Origin: Ascidiella aspersa
Lineage: Eukaryota
Direction: 5' to 3'
Length of the DNA: 64,000 bases
Assembly: GCA_963924565.1 (NCBI GenBank)
Contig: OZ004614.1
Location: forward strand, 3,968,001-4,032,000
Positions 27,501 to 61,074 of the stretch are shown one piece after another; the first letter of the stretch is position 1, and each line of letters opens with the position of its first letter. A model generated the notes under the pieces. That model was not told the DNA's origin. It searched no databases and saw nothing but the letters and a program-made list of their open reading frames with translations. The translations under genes and the position numbers were made by a program.

Positions 27501-30500
27501 TGTATCTTGCTCGTGTTCGTACTTTGGCGTCAACTTGGCGAGCAGCAGTTCGATTCCCGCCTCGGAAGAAAGGTCAAAAGACGCAACTAAATCAGGCGAA
27601 ACTAAGAACCAAACAAACAAATCATTTTCAAGTAATATGTAGTAGAATTAAAAAGCCACTAAATATAATGGGAGCCCAAAATACCCTGGTGTTATTTCTA
27701 GCGTCCATATACATTGCACGAACCCTTGCTAAAGTTGTTTCTTTAACTTACTTCCAACGCAGTTTCCGCTGATCAGAATGTCGAAAAGTATCTCGGCTGT
27801 TCTCGTGAATTCGTCCTCGTGCAAATGAAAGGGTAGATTTAGATCGGCGAGCAGCTTCATTTGATCGAGCGACATGCACTGAAATATAGCATGTGTTTTA
27901 AAAGTAGTAAACAATATTCTGTAATCTATTTGTAAATACTTCGCTGATTGTTAGACGATTAAGCTTTCATTACAAACGCCTTCACTACCGCATTCATATG
28001 CTCAGAATGTAAAACTCACGAAGAGGCTCACTACTCACGTGAATGCATTCGATTTCACACGTGAAACGCTCCTGCAGCTTGCTCGTGAGCGTGACGTAAC
28101 TAGCCTCATCCACGAAACCCTCGGTGCCCAACAGCTCCGTGAGGTGCGAGAAGCTGTCCTCGTGATCATGATCATGATCGTCATCGTGATCGTCACCTTG
28201 ATCACCGACTACTTCTGCAATATGACGCCCGTTTGGTTCAATTGTAAATGTTCAATAGAAAATTGTAAACAGCCAAAAATTACTGGAAGGTGGAAAACTG
28301 GCACAAGCGGTGTTTTCAGGTGTTTTGAATGACGTACTCATATTCCAAAGTCAGAAAAAAACTTCTTGTTAAGGTAACAAACCAAATGTTTAAAATAGGT
28401 AATTTTGTTAATTGGAATTTGATTGCTAGTTAAAAAAAAAACAGTGAAAAAATTGTGGTGTACAATGGTCATTATATGCTAACACAATAAGCAAACTCAA
28501 AACTAAACGTCAATTCACAATTCGCATCAAAAAGTAACCTCGAGCTTAAACGAACCTGAATTAGGTACATTTTGCGTTTCTACCCCGAAATGGCGGACGT
28601 ACGACTTTTGAAGTTGGTCTGTGGTCTGATAAACGCAGTGGCCCTCGAAAAAGTTGGCGTGTAGTTGAAAAACGCGCTCATCGACTGTCCTTTCCGCCAG
28701 AGTTGAAGCATTAAAGCACTGCAATAAAACAGTTCGTTTATCGAATTAATGTTAATCTCGGTGCCGACCGCTTTGGCATTCAGCAGCCTCGTGCACTAAA
28801 CAGAGCGCTAATTAACTATTGCATTTTTGTGGCTACCACTAGCTTTTACAAGGTTGGAAATGTCAGATCATAAGAACGGTAAGCTGAAGTTAATCTACGG
28901 CTTGCTGATGTGCTGAGTTATTTAAACGATCATAAGTAGGGCGATTATTTTTTGACATAAAAATGAGAAAGTTTGACATAAAAAATGTTAAATTTTGACG
29001 AATTTTAAAATTTTGACCTATAAGAAATACATTGATTTAAACAACATAATGTTGTTTGAAATACTGCATTTGTGTCTTGGCGTCCTCTGCAAGCTCCGTA
29101 TATAACATATCGCTCTAATGAAGATAAATACAGTTAAAATTTCGTTGAATATAACTTAAAATTTATTTTGTTTGACAAAATGGTAACTGAACGACAATTT
29201 CAAAAAAATGACTAGAGTTTTTCTACTTCTCAAATGATTTTTGAGCATTATTAATCGATTTTGACTACAAAACAATTTGACAAACTATACCTAACCTTTA
29301 AATTTCAACAAAGATTTTGACTTTTTAGACGAGTGAAAAAATAATCGCCCTAGTCTTACTAGAAAACACGTCTACCCACCATCTTTGTATCTTGCTCGTG
29401 TTCGTACTTTGGCGTCAACTTGACAAGCAGCAGTTCGATTCCCGCCTCGGAAGAAAGGTCAAAAGACGCAACTGAATCAGGCGAAACTAAGAACCAAACA
29501 AATAAATAATGTTTAAGTAATATGTAGTAGAATTAAAAAGCCACTAATTAAAATGGGAGCCAAAAACACCCTGGTTTTAATTCTTGCGTCCATAATAATT
29601 TCACGAACCCTTGCTAAAGGTATTATAAGAATATCAAAGCCCATACAGAAGTAGGTGTCATTTTGGACGTTTCGAATAACTCTGTTGAAAATGAATAAAG
29701 AGTTATTCGAAACGTCCAAAATGATACCTACTTCTGTATGGGCTTTGATATTCTTATTACGTCTTACTACAACTTCCAACCATTATGCCCCAAACTTGCT
29801 AAAGTTGTTTCTTTAACTTACTTCCAACGCAGTTTCCGCTGATCAGAATGTCGAAAAGTATCTCGGCTGTTCTCGTGAATTCGTCCTCGTGCAAATGAAA
29901 GGGTAGATTTAGATCGGCGAGCAGCTTCATTTGATCGAGCGACATGCACTGAAATAAAATGGAGATGATGTTTTAAAAGTAGTAAACAATATTCTGTAAT
30001 CTATTTGTAAATACTTCGCTGATTGTTAGACGATTAAGCTTTCATTACAAAACGCCTTCACTACCGCATACATATGCTCAGAATGTAAAACTCACGAAGA
30101 GGCTCACTACTCACGTGAATGCATTCGATTTTACACGTGAAACGCTCCTGCAACTTGTTCGTGAGCGTGACGTAACTAGCCTCATCCACGAAACCGTCGG
30201 TGCCCAACAGCTCCGTGAGGTGCGTGAAGCTGTCTTCGTGATCGTGATCGTGATCATGATCGTCACTTTGATTATCGACTACCTCTGCAATATAAAGATT
30301 ATTGACTACCTCTGCCCTTTTAGTTTATTTGAAAACGTTCATTAGAAAAATAGAGTTAGTTTATATAGCTGACACGGTCAGACCCTAATGCTCAGTTATC
30401 ACTTAACAATTTTGTTTAGTTTTGTTCTAGTTGTATTCTGGGTATTGATTTGACATAATGTCTCGCCTAAAATATTAGTTTCTGTCGCAGTTTCGACTTG

Positions 30501-33500
30501 CACAATTTTTTATTGTACCTTTCTGCCTTTGAATAAGTTCGCCCCAAGGTGCTACATTTCCACCCTTATGTGTGCAGTGGAACCCCAACCTGTGTCATAA
30601 CGCCTTTTGAAATCTATAGACTGCGGTTGGCCTCATTACTAGACTTTGCTCGCTTGGTAATGTCGCAAAACTATACCCGAATTATTTATTTAAGATAAAT
30701 TTTAAGTAGATTGTCGCTCATTCTCTCAGTCGCTCAGTTAATTTAAAGAGAATTAACGGGAGAACGGGAAACAAGCGCAAGCAAGCAACTCTCACCAATA
30801 GAAGAGAAATATATGACTGGTATATTTGAGAATTTGTGCAAGCCTGAATTTACCGACCTTGTTTGCAAACCTAAAAACCAATGCCATTAACCTATGATTG
30901 TCAACGTTTTCAAGACCCAATATTTGCCAATGTAACCCAACTTGCGTCATATAGCCTTGAAGATTCAAGAGGGTCTCACAGCCTTAGACTTTGTTCGTCT
31001 GGCGATGTCGCAACATTTGTCAAATCTGTTTATGTTAAATATATTATGAGTAGAATATGATCAAACTTTTGGTCGCTTAGTTTATTAAAAGAGAATAAAG
31101 AGGAGAACTGGAAATATGCGCAAGCCAGTCGCACGCATCGCCATTATTTAAAAGAGAACTAGATGGCTGGCATGTTTAAAGAGTAGTTGCATAAGACTGA
31201 GTTTGCAGAAGTTATTAACCCATGATTGCCCGCGTTTCCAAGAACCCTGTTTGTCAATGTAACCCAACCCGCGTCATATAGCCTTGAGAATACGAGAGGG
31301 TCTCACAGCCCTAGACTTTGTTCGTCTGTCGATGTCGCAACATTTTCCAAACACGTTTATTAAAGTTAATTTTTGTTAAATAGATTTTCGCTCATTCGCT
31401 TGGTCGCTCAGTTCATTAAAAGAAAATTAACGGGAGACCGGAAAACATGGGCAAGCGAGCAACTCACATCATCAATAGTTAAAGAGAACTAGATTGGTGA
31501 CGTACTTAAAGAGTAGTTGCGCAATCCTGAATTTTCCCACGTCAGTTACCGATGGTGTCCCCTATTTTTAAGACCCTATGTTTGCAAATGTTACCCAACT
31601 TGCGCTATACAGTCCTGCGGAATTTATAGAGTCCGATTGCCTTGATTAATGGACTTTTTTCAACATTCTCCAAATTTCTTCATGCAAGATATGCTTTGAG
31701 TTTATTCGCGATAAAACTGTCAGTCGATCAGTTGATTAAAAGAGAATATACGGGATGACGGAAAACATGCGTAATCGAGCGACCCACAACACCAATAGTT
31801 AAAAGAGAACTAGATAGATGATATTTTTGAAAAGTAGTTGCGCAAGCCTAAAACCGGTGCCATTAACCCATGATTGTCCGCGTTTCCAAGAACTGATGTA
31901 GAAATATGATCTGAGTACAATATGAACAAACCTTTGGTCGCTCGGTTAATTAAAAGAGAATAAAGAGGAGAACTGGAAATATGCGCAAGCCAGTCGCACG
32001 CATCGCCATTAGTTAAAAGAGAACTAGATTGCTGGCATGTTTAAGAGTAGTTGCGCAAGTCTGAGTTTGCCGACCTCGGTCGTCTCATTTCGAGCCCCAT
32101 GTTTGCCATTGTAACCCAACCTACGTCATACAGTCATGCGGACTCAAGAGGGTCGCACAGCCTTTACAACTAGACTTTGTTCGCTTGATGATGTCGCAAC
32201 ATTTTCGAGCCATTTATTTAAGATATGCCTTGAGTATATTCGTAATCAGACTGTTGGTCGCTCAGTTTTTTAAAAGAGAATTAACACGAGCTCGAAAAAC
32301 ACGCGCAAGCAATCAAATCACATCACCAATAGTTAAAAGAGAACTAGATTGCTGGCATGTTTAAATAGTAGTTGCGCAAGCATGAAACCGGTGTCATTAA
32401 TCAATGATTGTCCGCGTTTCCAAGAACTTATGTTTGCCAGTGTAACCCAACCTGCATCATACAGCCTTGAAAATTCGAGAGGGTTTCACAGCCCTAGACT
32501 TTGTTCGTCTGGCTATATCGCAACATTTTCCAAACACATTTATTAAAGGTACATTTTTAAGTAGATTGTCGCTCATTCGCTTGGTCGATCAGTTCATTAA
32601 ATGAGAATTAACACGAGCTCGGAAAACACGCGCAAGCAATCAAATCACATCACCAATAGTTTAAAGAAAACTAGATTGTTAATGAGTAGTTGCGCAAACC
32701 TAAATTTACCGACTTTGGTCGTCTCATTCCCCATGTTTGACAAAATAACCCAACCTACGTCATACAGTCGTGCGGACTCAAGAGGGTCGCACAGCCTTTA
32801 CAACTAAATTTTGTTCGCTTAATGATGTCGCAATATTTTCCTAACCATTTTATTTTAAATATGTTTTGGGTATCGAAATCAACTTGTCAGTCGCTTAGTT
32901 CATTAAAAGAGAATAAACAGGAGGACAGAAAACTTGCGCAAGCGGCAACTCACATCACCAAATAGTTAAAAGAGAACTAGATGACTGGCCTGTTTAAAGA
33001 GTAGTTGCGCAAGCATAAGGCGGGTGTTATTAACCCATAACCATTTCCAAGAACCCATGTTTGCCAAAGTAACCCAATTGGCGTCATACAGTCTTGCGAA
33101 ATCTAGATTGCACCATTGCCTTTATTACTAGCTTCTTTATTATAGGCTTTGTTCAACATTTTCCAAATCTACTTATTGAAAATATCGAAAAAATATACAT
33201 TTAAAGAGTAGTTGATCAAGTCTGAGTTTACAAAATTAGTCACACTGATGTTCCCTCATTTAGACCCTTATGTTCTAGTGGACACCCAACTTACGACATT
33301 AAGCCTTGGGAAATCTAGAGTGCTTAATTGCCTTTATTACTAGACTGTGTTCGCTTAGCGATGTCGCAATGATTTCCAAACCCATTTATTTAAAATATAT
33401 TTTAAGTAGAATGTTGCTCTCAGTCGCTTAGTTCATTAAAAGAAACTAAACGGGAGGACCGGAAATATGCGCAAGCGAGCAACTCACTTTACTAATAGTT

Positions 33501-35217
33501 AGAAGAGAACTAGATGTCTGACATACAAGAGTTGCGCAAGCCTAAATTAACGATCTCGGTGCTCACATTTCCAAGAACCCATGTTTGCCAGTGTAACCCA
33601 ACCTACGTCATACAGTCGTGCAGCATTTAGCGAGTGGGGTTGCCTTGATAACTAGACTTTGTTCAACATTTTTCAAATTTATTTATTTAAAATATGCTTC
33701 GAGTAGATTCGCAATCAAACTGTCGGTCGCTCAGTTCTTTAAAAGAGAATAAACAAGAGTACCGGACACATGCGAAATCGAGCGACGTTCGAGTGTCACG
33801 CATCACCCAAACAGTTAAAAGAGAACTAGATGGCTGGCATATTTAAAGAGTAGTTGCGCAAGTCTGAATTTTCCGCCCTCGGTCATCCCATCCCCAGTAA
33901 CCGGGTTTGTATAATTATGTAACCCTAACTGACGCCATTCAGCCAATTTTTCTAACATGTTCAAGGGGTTTGTCGCTCATTCTATTGTTTCTTTTGTAGG
34001 ATATTCTGTTTTTTTTTAAAGAATATTACGGTAGGGATAAACTGTCACGAGCAGTGTTTTTTAAAGTTTCTTAAAGGACCGAAACTGTATTTCAAATTTC
34101 ATCAACGGTCTCTGCTTGACGGCCTGTCACTGACCGGACGTCGCACTCAAGTTAATTAGTATTTATTGTCAGAATGGCCGTGTGAACGCCAACACTGGGC
34201 TCAATCTGTAGCACAGCGGCTAGCAAGTGCGCTAGCTCGCTTGCTCATAAAACCAACCGCTGTTTACCTAACAACGCCCAAAACCAGACTGCCGTGGTTC
34301 TTTAGCTTCAACAGTTGCAAAAACTAAGTAATTGCCCTTAAATATTAAAACAAAAGTGGTCATATGATGAAAACCCAAAAGTAGAAAGGCGGCAGAACAA
34401 ATCAAATGAGGTGAAGTAAATTAAAAAACGACAAAGTGAAATAAAGCAAAAAAAATATAATTTTGCATTACACACACCCGGAATCTGGGGTAGACTGAGC
34501 GAAACATTGCGTTCGTTGCACAGTAAATCCTTTACAGCGCCAATACGCCAAGCAACATTTCAAATGAACCTAAAGACGACAGTAAGAATAATCTATTTAA
34601 CCTGGAAAAATCCGCGCATTTCGTCTAGTTACTTATAGTAACTTTTAAATGGGCAAACGATAAGGCACTGACCAGGCGATGTTTCGCGCTTGACAGCGAC
34701 ATGCAAGAATTGTGTCTAGTTATATATACCAGTGGTTCCCAACACGTTTTTTAGGCGAACCATTTCGAAAAAAAAAAATTTTGGTATAATCTTGCAACCC
34801 AAGCAAATACAAAATTGCGTTGCAAACAAACTGTACTACAAAAGCAGTTACCTTTTCCGAAAATAATGTGTATATTAATTTACTAATGAGATAGTTGTGC
34901 TCGCTTGCTCTCAGTGAGTTTTAAAATCGAGGCGTTATTCTGCTTGAGCATAGAGTCACGCATGTCAGCTTTAACTTTCAGCCGGTTTCACCGTTTAGTT
35001 TTCATATTTTGTGATTATGATTTCCAGTTTTGTGAAAAGATACAATATGCCTGAAAAACAAGCGACCCCCAAAAATAATCAGGCGACCCATGCGTTGGGA
35101 ACCGCTGATATATACCACTAAATGAAGAAGGCACAACTTACCCACTGTTCTTCCACTGGTGATGCATAACATCAGAAAAGTACAAAAAAGCAAACGCTTT
35201 GTAGACAAAAACATCAT
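37..35217 (-). CDS. ZIP-ectodomain tandem-repeat protein: signal exon plus 16 full and 1 partial four-exon modules; at least 3180 aa, 3' end outside the window
   Basis: 67 exons with canonical splice sites and matching phases. Exon lengths A 176 (170 in module 1), B 127, C 107, D 163 match ZIP exons 2-5. No stop or frameshift seen; 9541 coding nt in the window. Confidence 0.85.
842..2386 (-). CDS. Module 16: A 2386-2211, B 2049-1923, C 1772-1666, D 1004-842
   Basis: Intact exons, 573 nt. Confidence 0.83.
1225..1636. mobile_element. ~412-bp MITE in the C-D intron of every unit (also e.g. 28939-29350; truncated in four units)
   Basis: TIRs GGGCGATTATTTTTTGAC ... GTCAAAAAATAATCGCCC, flanked by TA in most copies; no coding capacity. 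Confidence 0.75.
2728..4274 (-). CDS. Module 15: A 4274-4099, B 3938-3812, C 3661-3555, D 2890-2728
   Basis: Intact exons, 573 nt. Confidence 0.83.
4621..6167 (-). CDS. Module 14: A 6167-5992, B 5830-5704, C 5553-5447, D 4783-4621
   Basis: Intact exons; D donor is gttagt. Confidence 0.83.
6510..8055 (-). CDS. Module 13: A 8055-7880, B 7718-7592, C 7441-7335, D 6672-6510
   Basis: Intact exons, 573 nt. Confidence 0.83.
8398..9580 (-). CDS. Module 12: A 9580-9405, B 9243-9117, C 8966-8860, D 8560-8398
   Basis: Intact exons; ~363-bp deletion confined to the C-D intron. Confidence 0.83.
9923..11468 (-). CDS. Module 11: A 11468-11293, B 11131-11005, C 10854-10748, D 10085-9923
   Basis: Intact exons; first Cys of D changed to Trp. 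Confidence 0.83.
11811..13356 (-). CDS. Module 10: A 13356-13181, B 13019-12893, C 12742-12636, D 11973-11811
   Basis: Intact exons, 573 nt. Confidence 0.83.
13699..14881 (-). CDS. Module 9: A 14881-14706, B 14544-14418, C 14267-14161, D 13861-13699
   Basis: Intact exons; ~363-bp deletion confined to the C-D intron. Confidence 0.83.
15223..16767 (-). CDS. Module 8: A 16767-16592, B 16430-16304, C 16153-16047, D 15385-15223
   Basis: Intact exons, 573 nt. Confidence 0.83.
17113..18657 (-). CDS. Module 7: A 18657-18482, B 18320-18194, C 18043-17937, D 17275-17113
   Basis: Intact exons; first Cys of D changed to Trp. Confidence 0.83.
19003..20517 (-). CDS. Module 6: A 20517-20342, B 20180-20054, C 19903-19797, D 19165-19003
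   Basis: Intact exons; D donor is gttagt. Confidence 0.83.
20859..22589 (-). CDS. Module 5: A 22589-22414, B 22252-22126, C 21790-21684, D 21021-20859
   Basis: Intact exons; 185 bp of extra sequence in the B-C intron. Confidence 0.83.
21924..22108. mobile_element. Foldback (palindromic) MITE-like element, 185 bp, in the module 5 B-C intron
   Basis: AAGAATATCAAAGCCCATACAGAAGTAGGT...ACCTACTTCTGTATAGGCTTTGATATTCTT; same family as the copies in ZIP introns. Confidence 0.8.
22930..24475 (-). CDS. Module 4: A 24475-24300, B 24138-24012, C 23861-23755, D 23092-22930
   Basis: Intact exons, 573 nt. Confidence 0.83.
24817..26330 (-). CDS. Module 3: A 26330-26155, B 25993-25867, C 25716-25610, D 24979-24817
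   Basis: Intact exons, 573 nt. Confidence 0.83.
26672..28214 (-). CDS. Module 2: A 28214-28039, B 27878-27752, C 27601-27495, D 26834-26672
   Basis: Intact exons, 573 nt. Confidence 0.83.
28556..30284 (-). CDS. Repeat module 1: A 30284-30115, B 29948-29822, C 29486-29380, D 28718-28556
   Basis: GT-AG exons; A is 170 nt, as in ZIP exon 2. Confidence 0.85.
29620..29804. mobile_element. Foldback MITE-like element, 185 bp, in the module 1 B-C intron
   Basis: Long inverted repeat bounded by the direct repeat CTTGCTAAAG. Confidence 0.8.
30560..33940. repeat. Degenerate ~330-bp tandem repeat (about 10 copies) in intron 1 of the repeat gene
   Basis: Recurring blocks GTAACCCAAC, AAAAGAGAACTAGAT, GAGTAGTTGCGCAAG, GTCGCTCAGTT, with many indels. 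Confidence 0.85.
34730..35107. mobile_element. hAT-type MITE, 378 bp
   Basis: TIR CAGTGGTTCCCAAC ... GTTGGGAACCGCTG, with a perfect 8-bp TSD ATATATAC. Confidence 0.88.
35142..35217 (-). CDS. Signal-peptide exon of the repeat gene, MMFLSTKRLLFCTFLMLCITSGRTV
   Basis: Same 76-nt length, phase-1 G|gtaagtt donor and LSTK-x-LL-x-C pattern as ZIP exon 1; AG acceptor at 35229. Confidence 0.85.
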
Positions 35218-36076
35218 GATTTTATTCTCTAAACAAGCTCCAAAACAGCTATAAAAGAAAATCATCTTTGTTAGCGTTTTGTTTGCTTACGGATTTCGAT
35301 ATTGTCTTGTAGGCCATCCAATGGAATTATGGTGCGTATTTAGAAAAATATTTTCTATAAAAGTAGTCTGTTTTAAATAATAAAAGCGGCAACACGCAAA
35401 ATAATATGTGAAGTTAAGATTAAATACATCATAATGACCTAATGCAAACAAGTCCTGTAGACTTTCGTGTATTTCCATAAAAATAAAATTGTCCGAGTCT
35501 ATATAAAGTCTATAATCTCTTTAGTAAAAGCAAAATATTTTATACGCTGTGAATTAGGCTTTGCCGTTTGAAACCTCAATGAGCTACGTTGACCGAAAAG
35601 GTGCAAAACAAAAATTAGTGTTTCATATATTTTTAGTATTTGTTTCATCTGCATCATGGCAATCTTCCGATTACGAAGAGATTCGTTACACTTTCAATTT
35701 AGGTCACACAGGGCAATCTACTCTTTTTCGTCAGACATCCTTAAGCATTCAACAGCTTCCTTCGTTCTTTTTTCTTTGCAAAGCTTCTTCGCCGCGCTTT
35801 GGCACAACTCAGAAAAAATCGCCCTTTTTATATTTTGGCGCTGCATTAAAAAAACAAGGACGCGGCGCGGTATGACGTTGCTGATGGTAACTTAGCTTTT
35901 TTAATTGCATTGTGCCCGCCGAAATTTACCAACGGACGTTAACTCTGGTTGAACCCTTTCCAAATCGTCGTGTTTGCTCAAGGAGCTCAACTTGCGTCAT
36001 TTGGCCTTGCGAAATTTTCAGCGTCCGATTGTTTTACGTCTTGCCTTTGTTTGCTTTACATTACAGGTACTTGAGT

Positions 36077-36318
36077 TTTTAGCTTGGCGCAGCAAAAAAA
36101 TCAAAATTTTAGCTTGGCGCAGCAAAAAAAAATCAAAATTTTGGCTTTGCGCAGCATGAAAATCGAAATTTTGGCTTTGCGCAGCATGAAAATCAAAATT
36201 TTGGCTTGGCTCAGCAAAAAAAATCAAAATTTTAGCTTGGCGCAGCAAAAAAATCAAAATTTTAGCTTGGCGCAGCACAAAAATCAAAATTTTAGTTCGG
36301 CGCAGCAAAAAAATCAAA
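36077..36318. repeat. ~30-bp minisatellite, about 8 copies
   Basis: Unit TTTAGCTTGGCGCAGCAAAAAAATCAAAAT. Confidence 0.93.
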
Positions 36319-39300
36319 TATGTTTTTGTGGACGTCCGAAAGATTTTACTATTGTTGCTTCCCCAATTACCGATCTAAGCTCATATGAACCGTGATGCAG
36401 TGCAGATCGCAAATCATATGAGCCGCAACGAACATTTGTCGAATCATGTAAACCGCAGTTATCATGTGAATCGTTCTCCATATATGCAGAACAGTTCAAA
36501 ACAGGAAACCCTGCGTGGACAAATAAAAACGATTTGCCGCAATTCTAAGCTGCAAAAATAAAGTAGAAAAATCCACAGTTGTGAATTTCCTCCCTTCAAA
36601 AAAAAAATCTTACAACTACTTAACAAGTGTAGTACATTTTTAGACAAATAAACTATTCATAATTTCTTACAAGGGTCGAGTTGCTTCCACATTATTTTCA
36701 ACATGATTTCGTAACTGAATCAAACACATTGCGCAAACAAATGTGAAACACAATCAATAAAATGTAGTTAAACATTATCTAAACGAATCGCTTAACACGC
36801 CGTGTGGAACATTTTGAATGGAAACTCGTACTCTGAAAAGCCAGCCGAGAAATATAAGTTCTAAATGGTTCACAATTCAAATTGTTTGATTTTCATGAAA
36901 AAATGACATTTCACATTCTTTTAAATAGTTGCTCGTGCGTTAATATAAGATGCAACTCGTTCAAAATATTTGCCAGAAAACCGTTTGCAAATTGCAAGCA
37001 AATGTTGAACACTCTAGGCACCAATTTTTTTAGCCTGGTGTGTTGTGTCTCCAAACCGTCCGTGTGTGCAGACCATTTAAACCCTACATTAACAAGGTTT
37101 TATAGTTAGTGGTATTTTACGTCATGGCGAAACTTTCTGCGTTTGGCACCAGCTAAAATGTTACAGTGTCTAGAATTAATTGACAATTCACCTTTAACGG
37201 AATGGTCACTTTAAAGTTGTCACAATCTATATCTGTCCTACCCGGGTATGTATCAGTGTTTCTCGAGCTAGGACTTTTGTGAGTGTTGTTGTAAAATTGG
37301 TAAATAACTGCTGATCTCAATCTTGTCAACGTTAGCGCAGGCTGAAAACACCTTGGCACCAAGTCGAAGTTAGCTTCTCTAAAATCTTCGAAATGTATTG
37401 TCACTGTAAACATGCCTACACTGTGCTGAGGCATACAGACAGTGCTTGTACCAGCATTAGCTCTCCAGTCTACACAAAAAATCGAATATACCTTACTTTG
37501 TTAGAATAATTGCGCCATTCTATGCAGTAGTTTTAACCTCTATGAGCCTAACTGCGGTTGTCGGCCTGAGTGTTTCACATCGTATAAAGTTAAAAATAAA
37601 TATACAACGAGCTGCTTTTTTAGCGTTGCCTTGGTCGATACAAAGTTATTTTTTTAAATGTACATAATTTTGTTTTTGACTCGTGTTTTTTTGGAAGCCG
37701 TTTTTACTCGTATACATCTATGTAACTTAATTTATGTGTATTATATTTATGTATTATGTATATTTTATATTTATGTAGGTCTATATTAAAATTCTCATTA
37801 CATTTTTGGATCTTGATCTAGTGGGTGCTATTTATAGCATTTGCTTTCTACAAAAATTGGGTTTAATGGCTGCCACGATAATTCGGTAAACAACACAGAG
37901 AAACTTTGCTTCGGCGATACGATGTTTCCAACTCTGTTTCTCCTTTTAAAATATCTGCTCTACAATAATTACAAATTGACTCTTGTTGTTAGACGATTTG
38001 GCACATGATATTATTTGGCGATCATATAAGAAACAAATACAGGCGTGCTTATTACAATGGAAAATCAAGTAACTAAAACATTAAGTGTTTTGAAATTGAA
38101 ATGTCGAATTGGTTTCACAATAAGTGCACATATGTTTACCATGCCTTATACTGAGCGATACCCGAAATGTATTCACCGTTTTTCAATTGATTTTTAAGCG
38201 TTCGAATCATCAAAAGAGACCCAATACAAGATTGGTAATACGCGAAAAATGCAAAGTTTCCAGTTTCAACGTTCATGGTTGAATATATTTGGCCTAAACA
38301 GGCAGCTGTAAAACTTTACAAGCAAACACACAATTTGGTGAAAAGAAAGAAATCGAATTCAAGTCCAAATGAGATACGTTAAAGTTGCAACGAAAGAGAA
38401 AATATTGATGCTGATGCTTAATATGGTACCGTGACATTCCAAAATTAAAATTAGATAAATACATTTATTTAAAAGCAAAAATTAGGTATATGAGTGGTGC
38501 CTAATGATGGGTAAGGCCGTAAGGTGGGGTATCGTGCTTCAATTTTCTAGGTCAAACAAATAAATTTGGTCATATCAAAATAGGCTTGAAAAAATCATGT
38601 TTGCTCTAACTTTGTTCCGGTCATACACCTACAATCATAATTGTTTTTGACGTTTTTGAAATCACGTAATATTTCGACCTATTCAGTGAAACTCGAATTG
38701 GCCAACACAAGAGCAATGCGAGTTTTGTTGTAGATATAAAGGCCATTTTTTCGGTGTCGCCAAAAACAACACAATGAAAATGAAAAGAGTAAAACATTAA
38801 AAAGATGCATTGAACGCGAAAGTATATAAACAAAAGAAAAAGAGAATTAAGACACAATTAAAATGGTGGCGCTTTTTGACAAAAGCTTGATTAGAAAAAT
38901 TAATTAAAGTCGAAAAGAAGGAAATACAGTTAATAATAATAAAGGCACATTATCTTGATTTTTTTGTGAAGGTTTTTTAAATAAGGGGAGTAAATAAAGA
39001 TGTGAATAAAAATTATAACAAAAATAGACACGACGAACACGAGTAGTATATTTTTGTTAATAAATTATAATTTAAATTAGTGGCAAAAAATTAACAAAAC
39101 CAATAGATTATTAAGTATGTTGGTAATAAAAATAATTGTATTTAAAAGGTACACTAAACAAATGGATGAATGTTCATAGTCGAGGGTAAAAAAATATCCA
39201 CAAGTATTTAATTTTTGTAAGCTTTCGACTTAAAATTTCGCTATAACGCCCAAAACCCAGTGACTGTAATTAAACCTGTGGACATTAGCCGCTTCCAGTA

Positions 39301-39371
39301 AGATATAGGGTCAATTAGCGAAATTAGTTTAGTAAATACTTGGGTACACTATGCACGGATCTGTAATGTAG

Positions 39372-39479
39372 CTTGATAATAAATTGCAAAGCCAAAAAGG
39401 TCGAGTAGATCGACAGCATCTTGATTAAGACGTTTCGATACTAGCTCGATCCTTTTTGGCTTTGCAATTTATTATCAAG
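39372..39479. repeat. 108-bp imperfect palindrome downstream of the ZIP stop
   Basis: CTTGATAATAAATTGCAAAGCCAAAAAGG ... CCTTTTTGGCTTTGCAATTTATTATCAAG. Confidence 0.85.
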
Positions 39480-40063
39480 TTCAGTAAATGCTTAATTAAA
39501 AACTCAAGTACACAGCGATCAAAATAATAAAAAGGGCACTCTGGGCGCAATGGTGACCTAAACATATTACTTAAGTAACAAATATCCAAAAGATTATATA
39601 GACAAATATAATTCGACGGAAAGCATTAGTAAAACTATGCTTAATCTTTAGCGCATTTTCGTTGATAAACTTAAGGTAAATAGGTGTGACCACAATTATT
39701 ATTGGTTAACTCGTAAAAGAAGCACATTAAACGCCAAAGTTACTTTTTTATTAAAAGATTCTCCGAATTGGTTTAACATTATTATATATAAGGTCACAGG
39801 AAACAAAAATCAAACAAGAAACAGTCTTCATTAGGAACAAAAACCGGACCAATGAAAAATAGCACACGATATAAAAACGTATGTAGAAAAGTTGCTTAAA
39901 TTAGAGTTAAAAAACTCACAGGAAACAATGGAAAACGAAAACTACAAATTAAACCCGTATCAACAGCCAATGCTATAGTGCACGAAATCCTTGGTAGCCG
40001 CTCTTAACGACCACGAAGTGTGCGTTAACTTATATCACATATAGCGCTCTCTGGCGGGGTCTA

Positions 40064-40204
40064 TTATCCCCGGATACTGTCCACTAGCTGGTCCTCGTAG
40101 AGTGACAGCACGAGCATGATCGCCCATCCAAGCACCATTCCGAAGTTCTGCAGGAAAAATTGGAGCACGGGAAAGTGTGAATCATCATCCACCATTTCGT
40201 GAAG
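40064..40204 (-). CDS. ZIP exon 14, TM8 and stop
   Basis: ttccag acceptor; LHEM...[31 protein letters not shown] then TAA TAG. Confidence 0.93.
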   Translation of the reverse strand, partial: LHEMVDDDSHFPVLQFFLQNFGMVLGWAIMLVLSLYEDQLVDSIRG

Positions 40205-43200
40205 CTGGAAATTAAGAGGATATTTTTAAAGCATAATGGTTGGAGGTTGTAGTAAGACGTACTAAGAATATCAAAACCCAAACAGAAGAAGCTACAAATA
40301 TGTTAAAAAACGAATAAAGAGTTATAATGAAGTGTTGCTCTTCCAGCAGTATATACAATAGATCGACGTTTTGACGTGCTATACAGAACGTCTTCATCAG
40401 GATACTCACGTATCGTGTAAAACAGTAAAGAGTTGTTCGAAACGTTCAAAATGTTACCTACTTCTGTATGGTCTTTGCTATTCTTATTAATAGGAGATTA
40501 AAAATGGAATGTTGCGCACTGCTGTGTAGGTTCGGTAACGCATTAAGACCGGTTAGTATCTACAAAATGCCAAGCAATCTTTTCAAAAAAATATTTGTTC
40601 TTATTTCTTTCTTTTCAGAAGAAAAATTAAGATCCCAATGAAATACATTTTTTTCTTGCTAGTTTATTTTTCTTAGGATTATGTAGCCATTTTTCAAACA
40701 ATTTCGATGAAAAGTTTAATCATTGCGCCATTTTTATTATCGGTCTTTATCTTTATTAATTTTGTTAGAACTCTTGGAGTTCAAGCTCATTTTTAAGGCA
40801 TTATTATCGATTGCTGGACACAATACTGAAACAACGCTTTTGAATCTTGTTATTACAATTATTACAAAAGCTTAAAAAGAGCTTTACATTTCACGAAACA
40901 ACAAACAGAAGTTACAAGAAAAATATATACAGGAAAATGGTCGGAAAAGTCGTATCATTTACAGTGCACATTTTTTCGGCAGACTAACCTACAAGTTTAT
41001 GCCGGTGATCTCTTTTTATATTGTCAAATAGTCCAAATCTAAAAACTCACCACATTGACAAGTGCTATGTAGAGGAACATTCCAGCCACAATTGCAAGCA
41101 GCCAAGTACGAATATCACTGTCAGACGAGAGGGCAACTCCAATATAGAGACCGATGAAGGCACAGCAAGCAGCCAAGAAGTTAAGTAGAAGGGCTTTCCA
41201 CTTTGTGAGGTCGTTTCTCATATAGATTGCGAAGTCGCCTGTCGAGAAACACGGAGTTAGCAATAGCGTGAAATTATTCAATGAAAGACACACACACATG
41301 TGTGTTCAACAAGCTGAAACACTTAAAAAAGTAAGGATATACCGAGGACAATAAAATGTAAAAGAAAGATTCTTGTCTTCGTATCGAAAGATCTTGAGCG
41401 TTTTTATTTATTAAAACAGATAAAACATAAAATCATTTCTTAAAGTCTTTCAGAAATATATATTACGCCTATAAGACATTCTGTAGAAAAACAAACATGT
41501 AAAAATGCCAATAATCGTGTGTTCAACAACTGTGATCTAGCCCTTCTGAAGCTGCTTTTTGACAAACGATTACGGCTTACTATCGTCCACTTAAAGCCAT
41601 TGCAGACTTACCGAATCATTCGATTAATTAAGGATATTTGTGCAAGGCGGGCTAGAACAATATCTATCCTATGGTGAGGTTCGAACTCACGACCTCCGGC
41701 CATTCAGGGGCCGTCGCTCTACCAACAGAGCTACACAGGCTCAGAGGGGGGCAAGTCGAGAAACAACCATGACACCGTTAATTTCTGCCTCCTGTTCGTA
41801 AAACTAGCCTGTGGTGACGTTCGAACTCACGACCTCCGGCCATACCGGAACTCCACGTCAAATTATTGATAACTTTCGCTAAATACAATCACCAGTTATT
41901 GCGTTGTATGTCGGTAGGTATTTCACAAGAAATATATATTTTGAATTTGTATTTGCGTATAAATGGCGTTTACCGCACCTAAACAATATTGTTAAGAAAA
42001 TTGGTCAAAGATGTGTTGCATAACTTTTTCTACAAGAAAATCATTGTTTTTTACGATTATTCTAATTCGACATTGGTCGTCTTTACTGTATGTGTCATTT
42101 ACAAAAATACGTCTTGGTCAGTATTTTTTTTGTCGCCAAAATATGGCTACGAAAGACAAAACTAACAAGCAGGCAAGTGGTTAAAAACTAGAGGGCAAGT
42201 CTGAATTATATTTAGTTCTTACGCTTTGAAAAAACATCAACAAGCGAAAGCGGTTTTGTGCGTCCAAAGTTAAATTGTTTGATCACAAAGCACCTATTTC
42301 TAGAAGACACACTTGATGTTCTCACGACAATGTGATCAACAAGCATTGCAAAAATATTCTTACATCGCTGACCGAGCAACAAATTTATACATTACAGGTA
42401 GCTTTGAAAGAAACATTTAACTTGTCGTCAAAGAAACATTAACTTGTCACGGTCGCAAATCTTACTTTCCTAATAGTTTGCAAACGCATTATAACCCCGA
42501 GAAGTCATTGCATACCACTACCAATGACAAGTAAACTACATGTAGAGAAGCAAGAGAACCATAGCTTTAGATATGAAAATTAGAGACTGTATATGGCTTA
42601 CCGAATTCGTGTGGCAGCTCGTGGCAGAAGATAGCAAGCGAAGTTCCAATTCCCTGAACCCATGACGAACTGAAAGCTGCTCCAATGGCGATCCCATCCC
42701 CAAAGTTGTGCAATATGTCGCCGAATAAAACCATTATGCACACCGTGTTCAAACCTATAGAAAAATGAGAGTTTTGATTTAAGTTGACGTGTCAACTAGC
42801 ATCACTTTCTTATTTATGTAAACAAAAAAACCTGCGAATTCTGAGCAACCTAGATTCAATATAGGTGTCAAAACGCCAAAACTACTATTCTAAAATCTCA
42901 AACGATTAGGAATGCCAATATGTATACACACTAAAGTTTAAACTCTTAGGTTAGCAATATGAGTACTGAATAACTCAGAACTGTAAGCTATGCTAAAAAG
43001 ATAATACAAGTATTTAAAAACTCAAACGCATTAAAGATGTCCAAATGCGAATACTAAAACACAAAACACTATTAGATCTACCCGAAGGCTAATGCAAGCA
43101 TTTTAACTCATAGCTCTGAAATTCCTGGTGAACTCAGTATATTTCTCTTTGGATGAGTTAAGGAAGTACTTCATTTAACACAGATAAAGCAACAATGAGG

Positions 43201-46200
43201 ACAAACAGAGAACACACGTCTGCATCAGTGACTGCACAATATTCTTGTAACTTTAAGTTTTCCAAATAAAATAATTGAACTTAAACAAAGAAGACCCAAT
43301 ATTCTCGTAGTTCGAAAGATTTTCGAATGCGCTAAGACAAAATAAATTTATTTAAAAACTTTGGTAAGCATTTCGCAATACACATACTCCAGGTATGTGA
43401 TGCCGCCCAAATCTTAAAAACTTACAATTCAACTTAAAAACTCACCAAAGAAAATCTTGTGATCTTTGTCTGTTCCCCAGTCAATCACGTGATGATCGTG
43501 GTGGATGTGTGAAAGCTTTTCTGGATTCTTATCGGTCACCCCGTTTTCAATCTAACCATATTGAAAGGAAAAACGTATTAAGAATATCAAAGCCTAGACA
43601 GAAGTATGCAAAAAAACATGTTAAAAACCTTTGTACATTATTATCTCTATATTACGATGTATTTGCTGAGTAAGCATTGCAATTTCTGTCATGCTTCCCC
43701 AATTGCTTTAAAACAGGGGTTCCCAACCTGTGGTTCGCGTACCACTAATGGTAAAAGGTTTTCATGTGGTACGCGAGTAGCTACCGTTTTTCACAACTTT
43801 ACACTTTGTTTTCTAAACATAAAAAAAAACTCCCCGAAGCCCATTCTTATTGCTGCGTAACTATTCCTGTAGTTTCGAAACAGTGCGATCTTTAAAATAC
43901 AGGCCATGTCAATTGTCAACAAGGAGCACAGTGCTTTGTAAAGCGTACAACGCTGTGGGACAGCGGGCGTTAATTATGTCAAATAATTGCTCTTGATAGA
44001 TATCAACTACTGTTTTAGAGCTTAAGCCTTAAGCTACAAATAGCGTTGAATAATGCTAGTTGTAAGCTAAAAATAGGGTTCGAAGTGGTACGCGTGACGC
44101 TGCAGAGCGTCCAAGTGGTACGAGATCGTTAAAAGCTTGGGAACCCCTGCGTTAAAACATACAAATGGCAAATGATTCTCGGCACATTAAACGAAATCAA
44201 TGAACCTTGGAAACTGTGGCTTCCCCATTGGTTTTCGGGGCATCTCCATTTTCGCTGACGTCGGAAAACTTGGTCACACGTTCATCCATGCTCTTCAGGT
44301 TGTCGTGTTTGAGAACCTGTCTCTTCTGCAAAAAAATGATAATTTTAAACGGACATCGACCAAAATCGAATTTAGATTAAACGTGTTGAACGTTAAACAA
44401 GTACATTTTATGAAACATGTTTTTGCCAATAGAATGCACAGAAGGTTAACTCAAGGTTAATGGCGTAATTTGTGGCGTTATTACAGTAGGCGTAATAAAA
44501 GAATGTTGAAAGTAAAATTACCGTATTTTACGGACCATAAGGCGCACCCGATTATAAGGCGCACTGTCAATAAATTGCTTTGATTAAATTTTTGTTTATA
44601 CATAAGGCGCATGATCAATTTATCCAAATCGCCCAGGCATCCGCAACAAGCTGAGGCCTCCACAAAAAGCCGAGACCAGCCGCGTGGTAAACCGCTTCGC
44701 TCTTTCTCCTACTCCTCCCACTTTTTCTCCGCGCTCCTCTTTTACGTCCATCAGTACTGGTTTTGAGTGTAGGCAATAAAGCATCACTGTACTTAATCCA
44801 TACTATTGGTGCACCGGCTTATAAGGCGCACGATCAATTTATGAGGGAAAAAAGGATTTAAATTGCGCCTTATGGTTCGTAAAATACGATACGTAAAAAT
44901 CAGATACATAAGGTCCAAGCAAAATACAAAACCAAATTTTGCGCATAACGCGTTTCGACGAATAATAATAAGTCTTTAAAATAAAGAACGGAACGATTGC
45001 ACGTCAAAATCGATGAAAGACCAAACAAGGCCAAAATCACTGGTGTTTATTATATTGAGTGTTGCGTTCGGCTGATGTGGGGCTTTCCATAACCAACGTC
45101 ATCAAAACTAATTTAAATTATATCGCCCTTTTCAAGGAAAGTTTTAGATTCGTGCCAACTTTCATAATCGTGCTTCCTAAAGTAAGACTAATTTGAGAAA
45201 TTTTTTCCGCAACGTGATTACTTGCAAGTTTCAATTTAAGGGGCATTGAACGGTAAATAAAAAATACTTTGAATGGAATAAAGCTAAACTATTTTTCAAA
45301 CATAAAACTAAGAAATAAAACAATACTTTTAGCTTGGTCTGTTGCCGTATTAATATATTAACCTTAACCAACTAAGGATGTTCAACTTTGCAATCCGGAT
45401 AATGGTCTCAATTAAAGTAAAAATTCCTCTAATGGTATTGTAAAGTCTATAAATAAACAAGGCAAATTTAATTTCATCATTTGCCATTTTAGTCGCAAAA
45501 ACTCAAAAGGCCTTATTAATTTATGAGCATAATGGTTTAAGGTTATAGTAAGACGTATTAAGAATATCAAAGCCCATACAGAATTAGATGTTGAAAATGA
45601 ATAAAGAGTTATTCGGAAGGTCCAAAATGATACCTACTTCTGTATGGGCTTTGATATTCTAATTACGCCTTATTGATTATTTTTAAAGTGCAAAAGTTTG
45701 CAATAGAGGTTTTACCTTGCGGCTGTTGACGAAGACCTTGATGGCGTTCTCGAAGATAAATAGCATCCAGATGCCAGCCACAACCACCAGTAGCTTCCAA
45801 ACGTAACTTTTGTCCTCATTCTCATGATCGTGAGCCGCTCCCGCCTCGTGATTGTGAAGTCCCACGATCTGACGAATCAAAACACTTGTATTCACTCACT
45901 TTGCGCGATTGTTTCGGTCTAAAACTTGGGCGAGTCCGTTAATTTGAAAATTTTGCCATTGTTCGTTGTCTTACCACAAGAACAGCAAAATAGTTTCCCC
46001 ATTGAAGAAACTACTGAAGGTTTTTGAAATGTCTACTAGAACGGTTTACCGTGTCACAACTTACCAGCATATTATTTACATAAATATACTTTAGTGTGCA
46101 ATACTAAATAAAAAAAAATTTGAACTTCAGCAAAGGACCAATTCCATAGCAGGGATCGCATCAAACAACGTACCCATAATAAATGACAAAAATGGCTTAA

Positions 46201-49200
46201 CATATATAAAAGTGTGTAACTCAGCCAAGGGACCATTTCGATATCAGGGATCGCATCAAACAACGAGCCCACAACTCGAAAATTGACAAAACAGTTGAAA
46301 AAGTTGGCTTTGCAATTTATTATCAAGTTGAAAAAGTATTTGGCTAACATTTTTATTTGGCGCTTGCATTTCTATTTAGCGCCTGCAGATGTACAACAAT
46401 GCATTCGCCGAGATCACTCAGCGTCATACATCATATTCTATGTGAGAAGTATATTGATTGATAGTTGAAGTTCATTTGTTCTTTGATATACAAGGGAACA
46501 AGACAAATGTTATTAAAGTAGGATATTAAAACTGTCTAAAGTTGACATATCTTTGCAAAGTTCATCGTAGTTTGAATTGCAAAGAAACCACTCGGTAGTG
46601 ACCTAACACAAACACAAACAACATAAACTAGTCTGTTAAAAAAGTACTTGGCCCAGGACTTCAGTCCAAGCTGCAAAGCTTACGGTTAGCCGTACCACAA
46701 CTTACCAGCGAATATTCTAACTCGACTTTAGTATCTAATATAAAAATGTTCATCTCAAACAAAGGACCACTTCCAGAGCAGGGATCGCATCAAACAACGA
46801 TCTCACAATTCGAACGATAATTCAAAAAAGTGGAAAATATATTTTAAGCTCCTCTGCAAATCTACAGCGATGCAATCGATAACATGCACAATCAGATACA
46901 CATAAAACCCACATAGAATGGTTATCAGTTGAAGTTCACTTCCACATTTATCCGTTGATATACAAGGGAACAAAGATTAACCAAATATTTCTGATGAAGA
47001 ATATTGGAACTGTCAAAAGTTGACATATATTTGTAAAGTTTATCTTGGTTTTAATTGTAGAAAAACTACTCAGTAATAACTTAACACAAACACGAACAAC
47101 ATATACGAGTCTGTTTTAAAAGTACTTGGCCCGGCACAAAATTCGAAAGTTGTCAAGCTGCAAAGCGCTCACGGTTATCCTTGTCACAACTGCTAAATAG
47201 GTTTAGTATGGTATATCTATAAAAATGCTCATAATTATTAAACAAAGGACCACTTCCATAGCAAGGATCGCATCAAACAACGTGCCCACAACTCAAACTA
47301 TAAATTACAAATGTTGGAAAGGTGTGAAGCTGTAAAGCGCTCAATATAGTAAGAATCAACCCACGAGCCCATCGTTTGAACGATAAATGACAAAAAGTTG
47401 GAAAGCTATTTGGTTGCATTAAAGCAAGGGTCTCAAACACGCGGCCCGCGGGCCGCATGCGGCCCGCGAGAACATTTTGTGCGGCCCGTGTCGAAATTTT
47501 GGATTTTCAAGTATTTGACAATACTCAAGTGCCACATATCTTTTTTCAGTTTTGAAAAGTTAAAATTCCCTCTAAAAATGACCCAAAAAACTGAAACTAA
47601 TCATCAAACTTCACCATCTCTCCATTAAACGTTAACATTATGCGGTGAAAGATCTGCTATTACGTCACATTGCCTATTCACATATGTAAAGTTGTCACAA
47701 TAACGTTGGAAATTGCGCCGGTCAAATGTTAGTCAAAATGGTCATAATGTTCAAATTGATTGTCGAAGTATAGGCTAGCCTAGTATTGAATTTACTATAG
47801 TTTTAAAAGCTAAATTAACCTTGTCTTCTGCTTCGAAAATGAGTAAAATCACAGACGAAAACAAAGTTTTTTAAGATAAAAGTAGGAGGAGTTATATTTT
47901 GTCACCGCGGTCAGAGATACTAGTCATTGCCTTATTTGCCAGCAAAAAATAACTGTGGTGAAGGAGTACAGTAAAACATGTGTCGGCACTTCGAAACAAT
48001 GCACCGCGATAAATATGATGCTTACCAGGGCAAAGTAAGAGACAGAGACAACTAAAACCAGCATTTTGCAAACAAAGAGGTTTCTTGGCCAATATTAAGC
48101 AGTCCACATCTGCAAGCAACTCTAAGATTGGTTTCTGCTGACAAGTTGAAGCCCAATATCGAGGTCCTTGTCCATGAAAAACGCTGCCAGTAAAGTAGCC
48201 AGAACAAACAAAAAACTAGCCTAAATCATCAGCCTACTTATGTTTATCTTTTATTTTGTTCTTGTTGGTTGACATTTCATTGTAAATTGCGGCCCTTGGG
48301 CATTTTGCATGTCCTCATTTGGCCCTCAGAGCAATTTGAGTTTGAGACCCTTGCATTAAAGCATCTGCAGATCTGCAACGATACACTCGCCAAGAAAACA
48401 TGCACATTCAGCTACACATACATCACACATAGAATGGGTATTAACTGTAGTCCATTACAACACGGTTAGCCGTGCCACAACTCCTTAATAGGCTTTAGTA
48501 TGGTATATTACTACATAAATGACCCAAATAAGGGATCACTTCCATAGCAGGGATCGCACCAAACAACATATCCATAACTCGAACAATATATGGCAAAACG
48601 TTAGAAAGCTATTTAGCTGTATTAAAGCGCGAGTGACCATTTGAAAGCATATGATCGTGGCATCTAACATGCCCACAACTCGAAAGATAAATAACAAAAC
48701 AGTAGGAAAGGGATTTGATGGCTGAATTAAAGCGCTTACCTCCGGAATAATGTGAAGGATTGAATCTCCTGAGAGTGTTCCGACACCCAGAGCGATGAAG
48801 AACTGCATGACCAGCTTGAATCCCACTGAGGATAGGACCGGGAAAAATAGGATGCCCACAAAAGCGAGGAGACTGATCAGAGCAACCGACGCTGTTCCGT
48901 AACCGTACTCTGTAAAAGAACAATAGGGATTTGTCGTTAACGTACAAACATGCCTTTTCCCTAACAGAAATCATGAAGCTATTGTTCCGTAAACGTATTC
49001 TGCAAAAGAACAATAGGTAGTTTTTATTATTAAAAACACACCATTCCCCAAATACAAACATGCCTTTTCCCTTAAATCATGAAACTATTGTTCGGTGACC
49101 GTACTCTATACACAAGCGGATTTTTCAGTAATTTGTTTAATAAAATCATTAAAATGCATTGAAAAGAATATGCTTCGCCCGATATAATTTAATAGTCAAT

Positions 49201-59638: not shown

Positions 59639-61074
59639 TTTTTTTTTTTCAAGTCTATTCCTGAAAAAATGTTTCATGAAAAAAACATTTAGAATGTTTC
59701 ATGAAAAAAACATTTAGCTTTGATCACATTTAAACCATTGTTAGGTTAAGTCAAAGAACTTTATTTTAAACAAAGCATAGTCACAATGCAATTTAGATGC
59801 CTCCTTAAATTATTGAATTTATTTACTAATTTGTCCGATTCAAAGACATCAATAGCCAAACAATAGTTTCATACAACATCACCTATTACAAAGCGTTACA
59901 AGTAAATAAAAAATGGTCAATTTAATTAATATTAATAAAAAACAGCTCCTCCAGTAATTGTAATTGTTAACGTTTTGTCAACCTATTGTAAAATAGTTCC
60001 TCCGGCAAAATTTTATTAAAGTGACAACGTTTTAAATACTTATTCGGTCAATCTTCTTCAGGGCAGTATAACTGCAACTATGGGCGAAAACAAATCTTCT
60101 TTATATATATATAGAATAGAAATTTTTTCGGCCGGCGGTCGTCAACACAATCGCGTTTTAGGGAGACAAACAGAGCAACCTCGCTCATACTGCTCCCTCT
60201 TACGCAAGAAGCCAGAGGAGAGGGTGAAATAGAAAGAAACTCGTGTGCGCCCAGACGGAAAAAAGTGTTTCTTTCTATGAGAGAAAGTCGCGCATCTCAA
60301 GCTAGCGCCGTCTGGTTAGGTAACAATCAATAAAAACTGCCAAAAGATAAAGTTTAAAAATACATAAAATTTGCGCAAACAAATGTTGAACAACGTTCGT
60401 AAACTAGACAAACATTGCATAAGCCAAAGTTTTCAGTTGAACGCTGGTTGGCTTAACTGGTGAACATTTACAATAATGCAACCTCCCATCTTAACAGCAT
60501 TTAACGATTACAAAGCTCCCTTTTTAGCCTTTAGCACGCTTTTTCGCATTAATATTGATTACAAATCGAAATGATCATGAAAATAGGCTTAAAGGCATAA
60601 AAGCGTTACAGCAGTGATACCTAAACTGGTGTGCCTTAAGAGATGTAAACTTTGTTTTCTGTATTTCCAATAGGCATACACGCAAGCATTTTAGACTTAA
60701 ATAGGCACTTTCCATTACAGATGAATTGTATTGAGACATTTAAATCTAGTTTGTCGCGTGTTAAGGACGATTGTAAAGTTACTATATTGTTGTTCTGTTA
60801 AAAGTGCGCCGCAAACAATATAAGATTTGTTTAGTGTGCCACAACTTCCACAAGCTAAAAAAAGTTGCGAGTCACTGCAGCACAGCCTCACGTTTATGAG
60901 AAAAAAGCGAACGTTGGCAGACCGCGTGGTTTGCTACAGCGTCGAAGCTTGAAAGCTCGATTGCTCATGCGCTGTATATAATTACAGCATGGTCGTGAGC
61001 TAGTCAAGCCTATCTCAAAAACCAGCGTTTGGCAGCAACTCTTGTCTTGCTCAACTTTGAGAATAAGTCTAGTC

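Follow-up and report, generated by a model that had tools for sequence, protein, structure and literature searches.

A candidate first coding exon for a giant ZIP4/ZIP12-like gene in Ascidiella aspersa

Introduction

In the ascidian Ascidiella aspersa, a stretch of 64,000 nucleotides (nt) of contig OZ004614.1 (assembly GCA_963924565.1; 308.6 Mb in 75 contigs) carries an ordinary gene for a ZIP4/ZIP12-like transporter, here called gene A, followed on the same minus strand by a long array of exons homologous to exons 2-5 of gene A. This whole stretch is the window of the present study (G000:C8:3968001-4032000). Positions without a prefix are counted from its first letter, positions on the contig are marked C8, and all features of the two genes lie on the minus strand. 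Is the array a part of gene A, or does it belong to a gene of its own? A first-pass annotation had pointed to positions 35142-35228, between gene A and the array, as a hidden paralogous signal-peptide exon that makes the array an independent gene. This interval takes in 11 nt 5′ of an ATG, and the exon itself lies at 35142-35217. With high probability, an independent gene duplicate, called gene B below, has its first coding exon here.

The first coding exon of gene B

Gene A, identified by homology, extends over 40064-59638 and has 14 coding exons, 682 residues, and one copy of the module formed by exons 2-5. It has the canonical HNFGD and HELPHEFGD motifs and a furin-like KRRRR site in exon 6, and the closest named relatives of its exon 13 are two ZIP12-like proteins of Phallusia mammillata (84% and 82%) and one Clavelina protein (73%). 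The gene is complete, with its own stop at about 40064, and it ends about 4.8 kb upstream of the exon in question.

The first coding exon of gene A (59563-59638) was compared with the exon at 35142-35217, which on the minus strand starts with an ATG at 35217, reads MMFLSTKRLLFCTFLMLCITSGRTV-G, and is followed by a gtaagtt donor. It was found that both exons have 76 coding nt (25 codons plus 1 nt), a phase-1 donor, and the same seven donor bases. Identical positions number 50 of 76 nt and 13 of 25 amino acids, and the likeness ends at the donor, with 17 matches in the next 56 nt. In ungapped BLOSUM62 scoring, the gene A peptide gives 127 against itself, 69 against the gene B exon, and at best 36 elsewhere, against a background of 407,846 25-codon windows over 204 kb (mean -25.8, standard deviation 11.2). 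None of 100,000 residue shuffles attained a score of 69 or 13 identities. The ratio of nonsynonymous to synonymous substitution rates (dN/dS) is about 0.31 over the 25 codons, and the N-terminus of gene B is also homologous to the N-termini of two P. mammillata proteins, CAB3266267.1 (P0001) and CAB3266265.1 (P0002). Judged by these comparisons, the likeness is homology and not a chance hydrophobic stretch. In the gene B peptide, a basic N-region is followed by a hydrophobic core, with 7-residue hydropathy reaching 2.7, and by small residues ahead of an acidic stretch, so that it is a putative signal peptide. The hidden paralogous exon with a preserved hydrophobic core is thus borne out.

The exon joins in frame with the first exon of the array, whose acceptor is at 30284, across an intron of 4,857 nt (30285-35141), in agreement with the distance of about 4.86 kb proposed earlier. 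In the region 30285-40060, it is the sole open candidate running from an ATG to a phase-1 GT[AG]AG donor (three entries, all with the same donor). A pyrimidine-AG acceptor lies 31 nt upstream of the ATG in gene B and 22 nt upstream in gene A, where the layout is the same (59639-59660). Thus, each exon is probably the first of the coding exons but not of the transcribed ones, and 35218-35248 would be a part of the 5′ untranslated region (UTR) of gene B. The acceptors on the 35249 and 59661 sides suggest an upstream non-coding exon or spliced-leader trans-splicing, which is known in ascidians.

Architecture of gene B

Gene B was traced by BLAST of the gene A exons on 100 kb of added leftward sequence, and it runs 19 kb beyond the left edge of the window. 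The gene model has 94 coding exons and a coding sequence of 14,301 nt, or 4,766 codons with no internal stop, and spans 54.6 kb. The order is the signal peptide, 21 sets of exons 2-5, exon 6, and exons 7-14; homologues of all 14 coding exons of gene A are present in the same order and with identical intron phases. Module 1 (exons 30284-30115, 29948-29822, 29486-29380, and 28718-28556; homologues of gene A exons 2-5) runs from phase 1 to phase 1 and has 567 nt. Modules 2-16 and exons 2-3 of module 17 occupy 37-28214, with a repeat unit of about 1.9 kb and 573 coding nt per module. The rest of module 17 and modules 18-21 continue from 1-36 outward to C8:3959340, followed by the His/Asp exon 6 (C8:3958922-3957919) and by exons 7-14, which code for the predicted dimer domain and the membrane domain (C8:3957655-3948651). 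AG and GT flank each of the 84 module exons, and a genome search with exon 5 gave exactly 22 copies, one in gene A and 21 in gene B. To the array of the first-pass annotation it has to be added that it goes on beyond the window, counts 21 modules in all, and is followed there by a complete ZIP membrane domain. By its predicted product, gene B would be a gene for a giant membrane transporter and not a mere array. A secreted array without a membrane part was ruled out, since exons 6-14 continue in frame after module 21.

Is the array an assembly artefact? This is unlikely, as the modules differ by 2-52 nt and contig depth, examined over 28300-41300, is high in two sequencing runs, X1 (which may be the source of the assembly) and X2. 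The modules reach about 540-870 in X1 against 55-72 for single-copy sequence, and about 300-860 in X2 against 85-112, contig depth not being equal to copy number. The array is present in both runs, perhaps with a different number of modules. An X2 contig spans the region of exon 1 (35051-35542) with 6 differing letters and 21 gaps.

The domain identity of the product was assessed in several ways. Single exons of gene B pass the cut-off of the Pfam Zip family (PF02535; 35.1 bits), exon 12 with 38.1 bits and exon 13 with 46.1 bits, and genes A and B have the same 7 hydropathy peaks across the membrane region. A hidden Markov model of the helix-rich domain (HRD) region, built from 75 other ZIP4/12-like proteins, has 21 matches of 23-33 bits each in gene B and one in gene A. 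Each gene B module thus scores as a single HRD, and it also carries a His/Asp linker. An AlphaFold model was made of the orthologue P0002 and not of gene B (101-row alignment, mean predicted local distance difference test score 80). Its residues 71-334 fit the extracellular domain (ECD) of ZIP4 (4X82) with Z 11.9 and a root-mean-square deviation of 6.0 over 202 aligned residues, and its membrane part, with 8 long helices, fits BbZIP (8J1M) with Z 17.9. Exons 2-5 correspond to residues 24-232 of P0002, and the module, on this model, would consist of a His-rich linker, the HRD, and helix 1 of the dimer domain. The gene A form of this helix is kept only in module 21, which adjoins exon 6, while modules 1-20 have diverged there; such divergence is expected if the helix is partnerless. 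In exons 6-7, both genes have the Cys/helix pattern of the PAL-motif dimer domain, where CPALLQQ is replaced by CPGFLQQ. The Pfam EF-hand_Zip profile finds the orthologues with E values of 1e-5 to 1e-6 and gene A exon 7 with 0.056. In the ESM Atlas, the module region matched only FAM180, whose 0.78 falls short of the lead threshold.

Exon 6 of gene B has 1,004 nt against 197 nt in gene A; its 334 residues, 122 His and 108 Asp among them, form 17 His/Asp runs spaced by EVTT. The KRRRR site of gene A is absent from it, and no R-x-K/R-R site occurs anywhere in gene B. The ectodomain of gene B has 4,403 residues with 377 His, that of gene A 316 residues with 24 His. The predicted mass of the gene B protein is 542 kDa and its isoelectric point 4.5. 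Four N-x-S/T sites of the gene A module (exons 3-4) are missing from the gene B modules, and modules 1-20 have gained one in exon 5.

History of the duplication

How did the two genes arise? In exons 7-14, 304 of 405 residues are identical between gene B and gene A. The 3′ UTRs share two collinear blocks aligning at 68-71%. A 22-nt element, a candidate duplicated regulatory element, was found at 36729-36750 upstream of gene B and at 60371-60392 upstream of gene A (E = 0.018 in the A/B comparison), 1,533 nt and 754 nt upstream of the respective ATGs. A pattern made from both sites has only these two exact matches in 308.6 Mb. The element is thus unique and hence not a repeat, its uniqueness being no proof of function. 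The collinear 3′ UTR blocks and the shared element indicate that the whole gene was duplicated, and alignment of the first introns is no longer found. A tandem duplication of the gene and a later internal amplification of exons 2-5, as the first-pass annotation proposed, fit all the DNA evidence; that the array is an independent gene agrees with the stop of gene A itself and with the 14 exon homologues in gene B. The duplicate may have arisen by unequal crossing-over, by which the module array would then have grown and been homogenised.

Intron 1 of gene B contains a degenerate tandem repeat (about 30555-33895; a unit of about 330 bp in about 10 copies that are 66-88% alike) found solely at this locus. 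It carries 9 of the 14 TTGCGCAA palindromes of the 204 kb, and two more lie in the upstream elements shared by A and B. This palindrome resembles a C/EBP site, and the repeat could be an amplified enhancer. Metal-response elements occur once in each of four upstream and intron-1 regions, as expected by chance, and Rfam gave no match in 30200-40100. Between the 22-nt element and the ATG of gene B there is also a 30-nt tandem repeat of 8 copies (36077-36318). In gene A, short local duplications of exon ends were seen at 48893-49107, where the start of exon 8 recurs with a pseudo-acceptor, and at 56058-56274, where the end of exon 2 recurs.

The altered metal site

Does gene B still encode a working transporter? 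Comparison with gene A revealed altered metal-site codons at C8:3951525 and C8:3951426. The motif of transmembrane helix 4 (TM4) is CNFGD in gene B and HNFGD in gene A, and that of TM5 is HEVPRGFGD against HELPHEFGD. Cys4622 of gene B aligns to H507 of human ZIP4 (H177 of BbZIP) and Arg4655 to H540 (E211 of BbZIP); the change from His to Cys required two base changes. The equivalents of D511, N508, H536, and E537, that is, the bridging Asp, the Asn, the first His, and the Glu, are retained. I compared these positions in 172 fetched ZIP proteins, which include isoforms and are not independent. At the TM4 position, 165 have His, 2 have Cys (P0001 and one acoel ZIP4-like protein), and 5 have a gap. 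Arg at the second TM5 His and Gly at the following Glu occur in none of the 172. In the available text of a mutational study of human ZIP4, H507 and H540 are two of the four M1 ligands; H540R retains about wild-type activity at a lower affinity for zinc, H540A transports faster, also at lower affinity, H507A shows a moderate loss of activity, and D511A, H507R, H536R, and E537R cripple the transporter, D511 being essential (PMC5573306). Since the D511, N508, H536, and E537 equivalents are kept and H540R and H507A are active, I favour a pore retuned to low affinity over a dead one.

The explanation towards which I lean, without great confidence, is that gene B, an independent ZIP4/ZIP12-like tandem duplicate, encodes an importer that takes up metal at low affinity and catches it with a giant ectodomain. 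The ectodomain would stay attached to the membrane part and pick up metal ions along its His/Asp runs. The pore, with its bridging Asp and M2 ligands kept, would still turn over, its Arg being equal to the affinity-lowering H540R of human ZIP4. The metal carried would most likely be zinc, or another divalent ion.

It is unlikely, if far from absurd, that gene B is expressed with a pore that is dead or nearly so, the protein serving as a membrane anchor or sensor, as a metal sponge or buffer at the cell surface, or as a regulator of gene A by heterodimerising. The changes affect two of the four predicted M1 ligands and the Glu beside one of them, giving residues that are rare or absent in the proteins compared, and the exon for the dimer domain is the most conserved part of the gene (dN/dS 0.18). 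In the part available of another study, zinc sensing by human ZIP4 runs via the transport site (PMC7661102), which bears on a sensor role. On the other hand, the four other residues of the site are retained, the single changes H540R and H507A leave human ZIP4 active, and dN/dS in TM4-5 is 0.21, as low as elsewhere in the gene. Retuning of the pore remains my preferred reading.

Selection and expression

Is gene B maintained by selection? Module variants were counted in modules 2-19 (18 of the 21), as those at the ends vary in length or have diverged further. The 76 distinct variants comprise 32 synonymous, 44 missense, and no nonsense changes, of which 2.8 were expected. The synonymous share is 0.42 against an expected 0.21 (p = 4e-5), a ratio of about 0.39. 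In the same modules, exon lengths are constant, and 38 distinct gap spans fall in the four intron classes. Between A and B, dN/dS ranges from 0.18 to 0.27 over the parts of exons 7-14, with an overall synonymous rate (dS) of about 0.54, and 0.19-0.26 for modules 1, 10, and 21. From these comparisons, gene B appears to be under purifying selection.

The RNA evidence comes from run X3 (one sample, about 6% read, 1,177 million letters), in which the region 28300-41300 was analysed. The last exon and 3′ UTR of gene A have a depth of 6-9, tapering to about 37850, so that gene A is weakly expressed. The bin with gene B exon 1 has a depth of 2.7, which is not creditable to the exon because the bin also holds a dispersed repeat. 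Gene B is silent or nearly so in this sample: the first-pass annotation had called for a transcription start between 35.2 and 39 kb and a splice from 35142 to 30284, and X3 contains almost no gene-B RNA at all. A run search with the last exon and 3′ UTR of gene B gave no RNA run among the matches listed.

Several points weigh against an active importer under selection. The bins with the module-1 exons have mean depths of 0, 0.16, and 0.15 in X3, though reads of many modules should collapse there, and neither the joint from 35142 to 30284 nor a joint from exon 5 to exon 2 is among the joints listed. Gene conversion among the modules makes the variant counts non-independent and can mimic part of the selection signal. 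The tail of gene B has evolved faster than that of gene A, with 28 against 8 changes relative to the Phallusia pair (chi-square 11.1) and branch lengths of 0.31 against 0.06 in the tree, which also fits relaxation. Modules 7 and 11 each lack one Cys. Metal binding by the ectodomain is deduced from its composition alone, and the double change of Cys and Arg, with a Glu-to-Gly beside it, goes beyond the single changes assayed in ZIP4.

Taken to its end, such evidence would make gene B a silent or decaying duplicate, with a neutral array that arose by unequal crossing-over and whose frame was kept by phase symmetry and gene conversion. The scarcity of gene-B RNA and the accelerated protein change speak for it, as does the depth of the array relative to single-copy sequence, which is lower in X2 than in X1 and hints at a variable copy number. 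I consider it quite improbable, as 94 exons have persisted without a stop, a frameshift, or the loss of a splice site after a dS of about 0.54 from gene A, the modules have a synonymous excess with indels confined to introns, and the shared upstream element survives though the introns no longer align. If gene B is a functional importer, its expression would be restricted to a tissue, a stage, or a metal-starved state absent from X3.

A further possibility concerns the transcript. The exon at 35142-35217 might be an alternative first coding exon in a unit shared with gene A, reached at the 35249 acceptor from a leader upstream of A or by read-through of A, or the array might be skipped to give isoforms of 1-21 modules. 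An AG acceptor precedes both first coding exons, and since all modules run from phase 1 to phase 1, any number of them is removable in frame. However, gene A has its own stop and 3′ UTR, gene B carries its own copy of the upstream element, the depth in X3 is 0 across 35244-37847, and no joint from gene A is among those listed. A shared or variably skipped transcript is hardly probable, and an independent gene B is retained.

Implications

A ZIP protein about 7 times longer than usual, with 21 HRDs under purifying selection, would mark the HRD as a free-standing, multipliable module whose function can be tested. The natural counterpart of H540R, together with the recurring change from His to Cys, would make possible a paired comparison of pore selectivity between A and B. 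Genes of 94 near-identical small exons are of a type that annotation pipelines would miss or fragment.

A more speculative thought concerns the metal. The vanadium uptake pathway of ascidians is poorly understood, according to the available text of PMC9486056. It is a long shot that ZIP4/12 duplicates of the metal-hoarding, Ascidiidae-like lineage have been retuned repeatedly, by the change of the M1 His to Cys, for another metal such as vanadyl or iron. The 540-kDa antenna of 21 domains and about 380 His would then harvest the ion from seawater or blood for a low-affinity, high-throughput pore, and gene B would be the missing uptake step in ascidian vanadium accumulation. The link to vanadium is speculation drawn from the lineage (PMC9486056), the parallel Cys, and two Vanabin-2 (PF11437) matches above the cut-off in the genome, at C3:25475213-25475413 and C3:25488899-25489114, 13 kb apart.

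Comparison with known systems

Known ZIP transporters have 300-900 residues and at most one HRD, and the role of the ZIP4 HRD is known from deletions alone. Gene B resembles the ZIP4/ZIP12 subgroup of the LIV-1 family (SLC39A4, SLC39A12; 4X82) in having a predicted signal peptide, the HRD, a putative PAL-motif dimer domain, and a ZIP membrane domain, as well as a His-rich loop between the first two and the last two helices of the dimer domain. In contrast, ZIP4 and ZIP12 have one HRD in 600-750 residues, whereas gene B has 21 in 4,766; the His-rich loop has about 24 residues in ZIP4, whereas gene B has a 334-residue exon with 122 His; and gene B departs from the TM4 HN..D and TM5 HE.PHE motifs. 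The canonical LIV-1 signatures are HNxxD in TM4 and HExPHExGD in TM5. Gene B lacks both and is thus classed as a LIV-1-derived variant, not a canonical member. The HEIPHE motif is named for LIV-1, and Ciona has one unresolved ZIP4/ZIP12 gene, in the text available of PMC4222902. The HRD of ZIP4 is described, in the part available of PMC4915132, as a structurally independent subdomain whose deletion cuts Vmax by 50-60%, while deletion of the ECD leaves Km unchanged.

Are there other giant forms? Two full HRD copies were found in none of 187 fetched proteins (93 with an HRD match, 22 with a second partial one), which is weak evidence of absence. Exon 5 gave nothing at E 0.001 among three longer candidate proteins, within a limit of 2,000 residues. 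The best 150 of 6,501 representative matches have at most 1,081 residues, as does the longest of the 172 proteins, and such protein searches would miss long mis-annotated proteins. A metagenome scan with P0002 gave 597 pattern matches, none of them confirmed. No report of a repeated ZIP ectodomain or of a vanadium-linked ascidian ZIP was found in the literature, of which subscription papers were mostly outside reach.

The genome of A. aspersa has further ZIP genes. In a third ZIP4/12-like gene, at C9:15052673, the present assembly shows a TAA in frame within the TM6-7 exon, and a fourth at about 26.31 Mb of C9 has canonical motifs. Another local ZIP expansion is seen at C5:17.52-18.64 Mb, with four near-identical LIV-1 genes, three of them within about 40 kb. 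At C2:11767.6-11768.7 kb, a ZIP8/14-like gene (EEFPHE) has its dimer and membrane domains in one uninterrupted open frame.

Partial parallels to gene B exist in other proteins. The ZIP4-like protein P0010 of Styela clava (940 residues) also has an expansion of His/acidic repeats in the ectodomain; unlike gene B, it has low-complexity repeats only, an unrepeated folded domain, and canonical metal motifs. The engineered H540R and H507A of human ZIP4 (PMC5573306) lie at the positions to which Arg4655 and Cys4622 align. The changes in gene B differ in being natural and combined, with Cys instead of Ala and an extra Glu-to-Gly.

The closest relatives are P0001 and P0002 of P. mammillata, which are also paralogues of each other, P0001 having the TM4 Cys. 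Unlike gene B, both have a single module, 670-679 residues, and an intact TM5 motif. They are 97% identical in the module region and 87% in the membrane region, which suggests gene conversion of the ectodomain with divergence of the pore. In the tree, A pairs with B and P0001 with P0002 (support 99/99 and 100/99). Orthology of B and P0001 across the whole tail was ruled out (approximately unbiased test, p = 7e-6): 49 sites join A with B against the Phallusia pair, two join B with P0001 against A with P0002, one of these being the Cys, and one shows the third pattern. Thus, the TM4 Cys of gene B and P0001 is either a parallel change or an old patch that escaped gene conversion.

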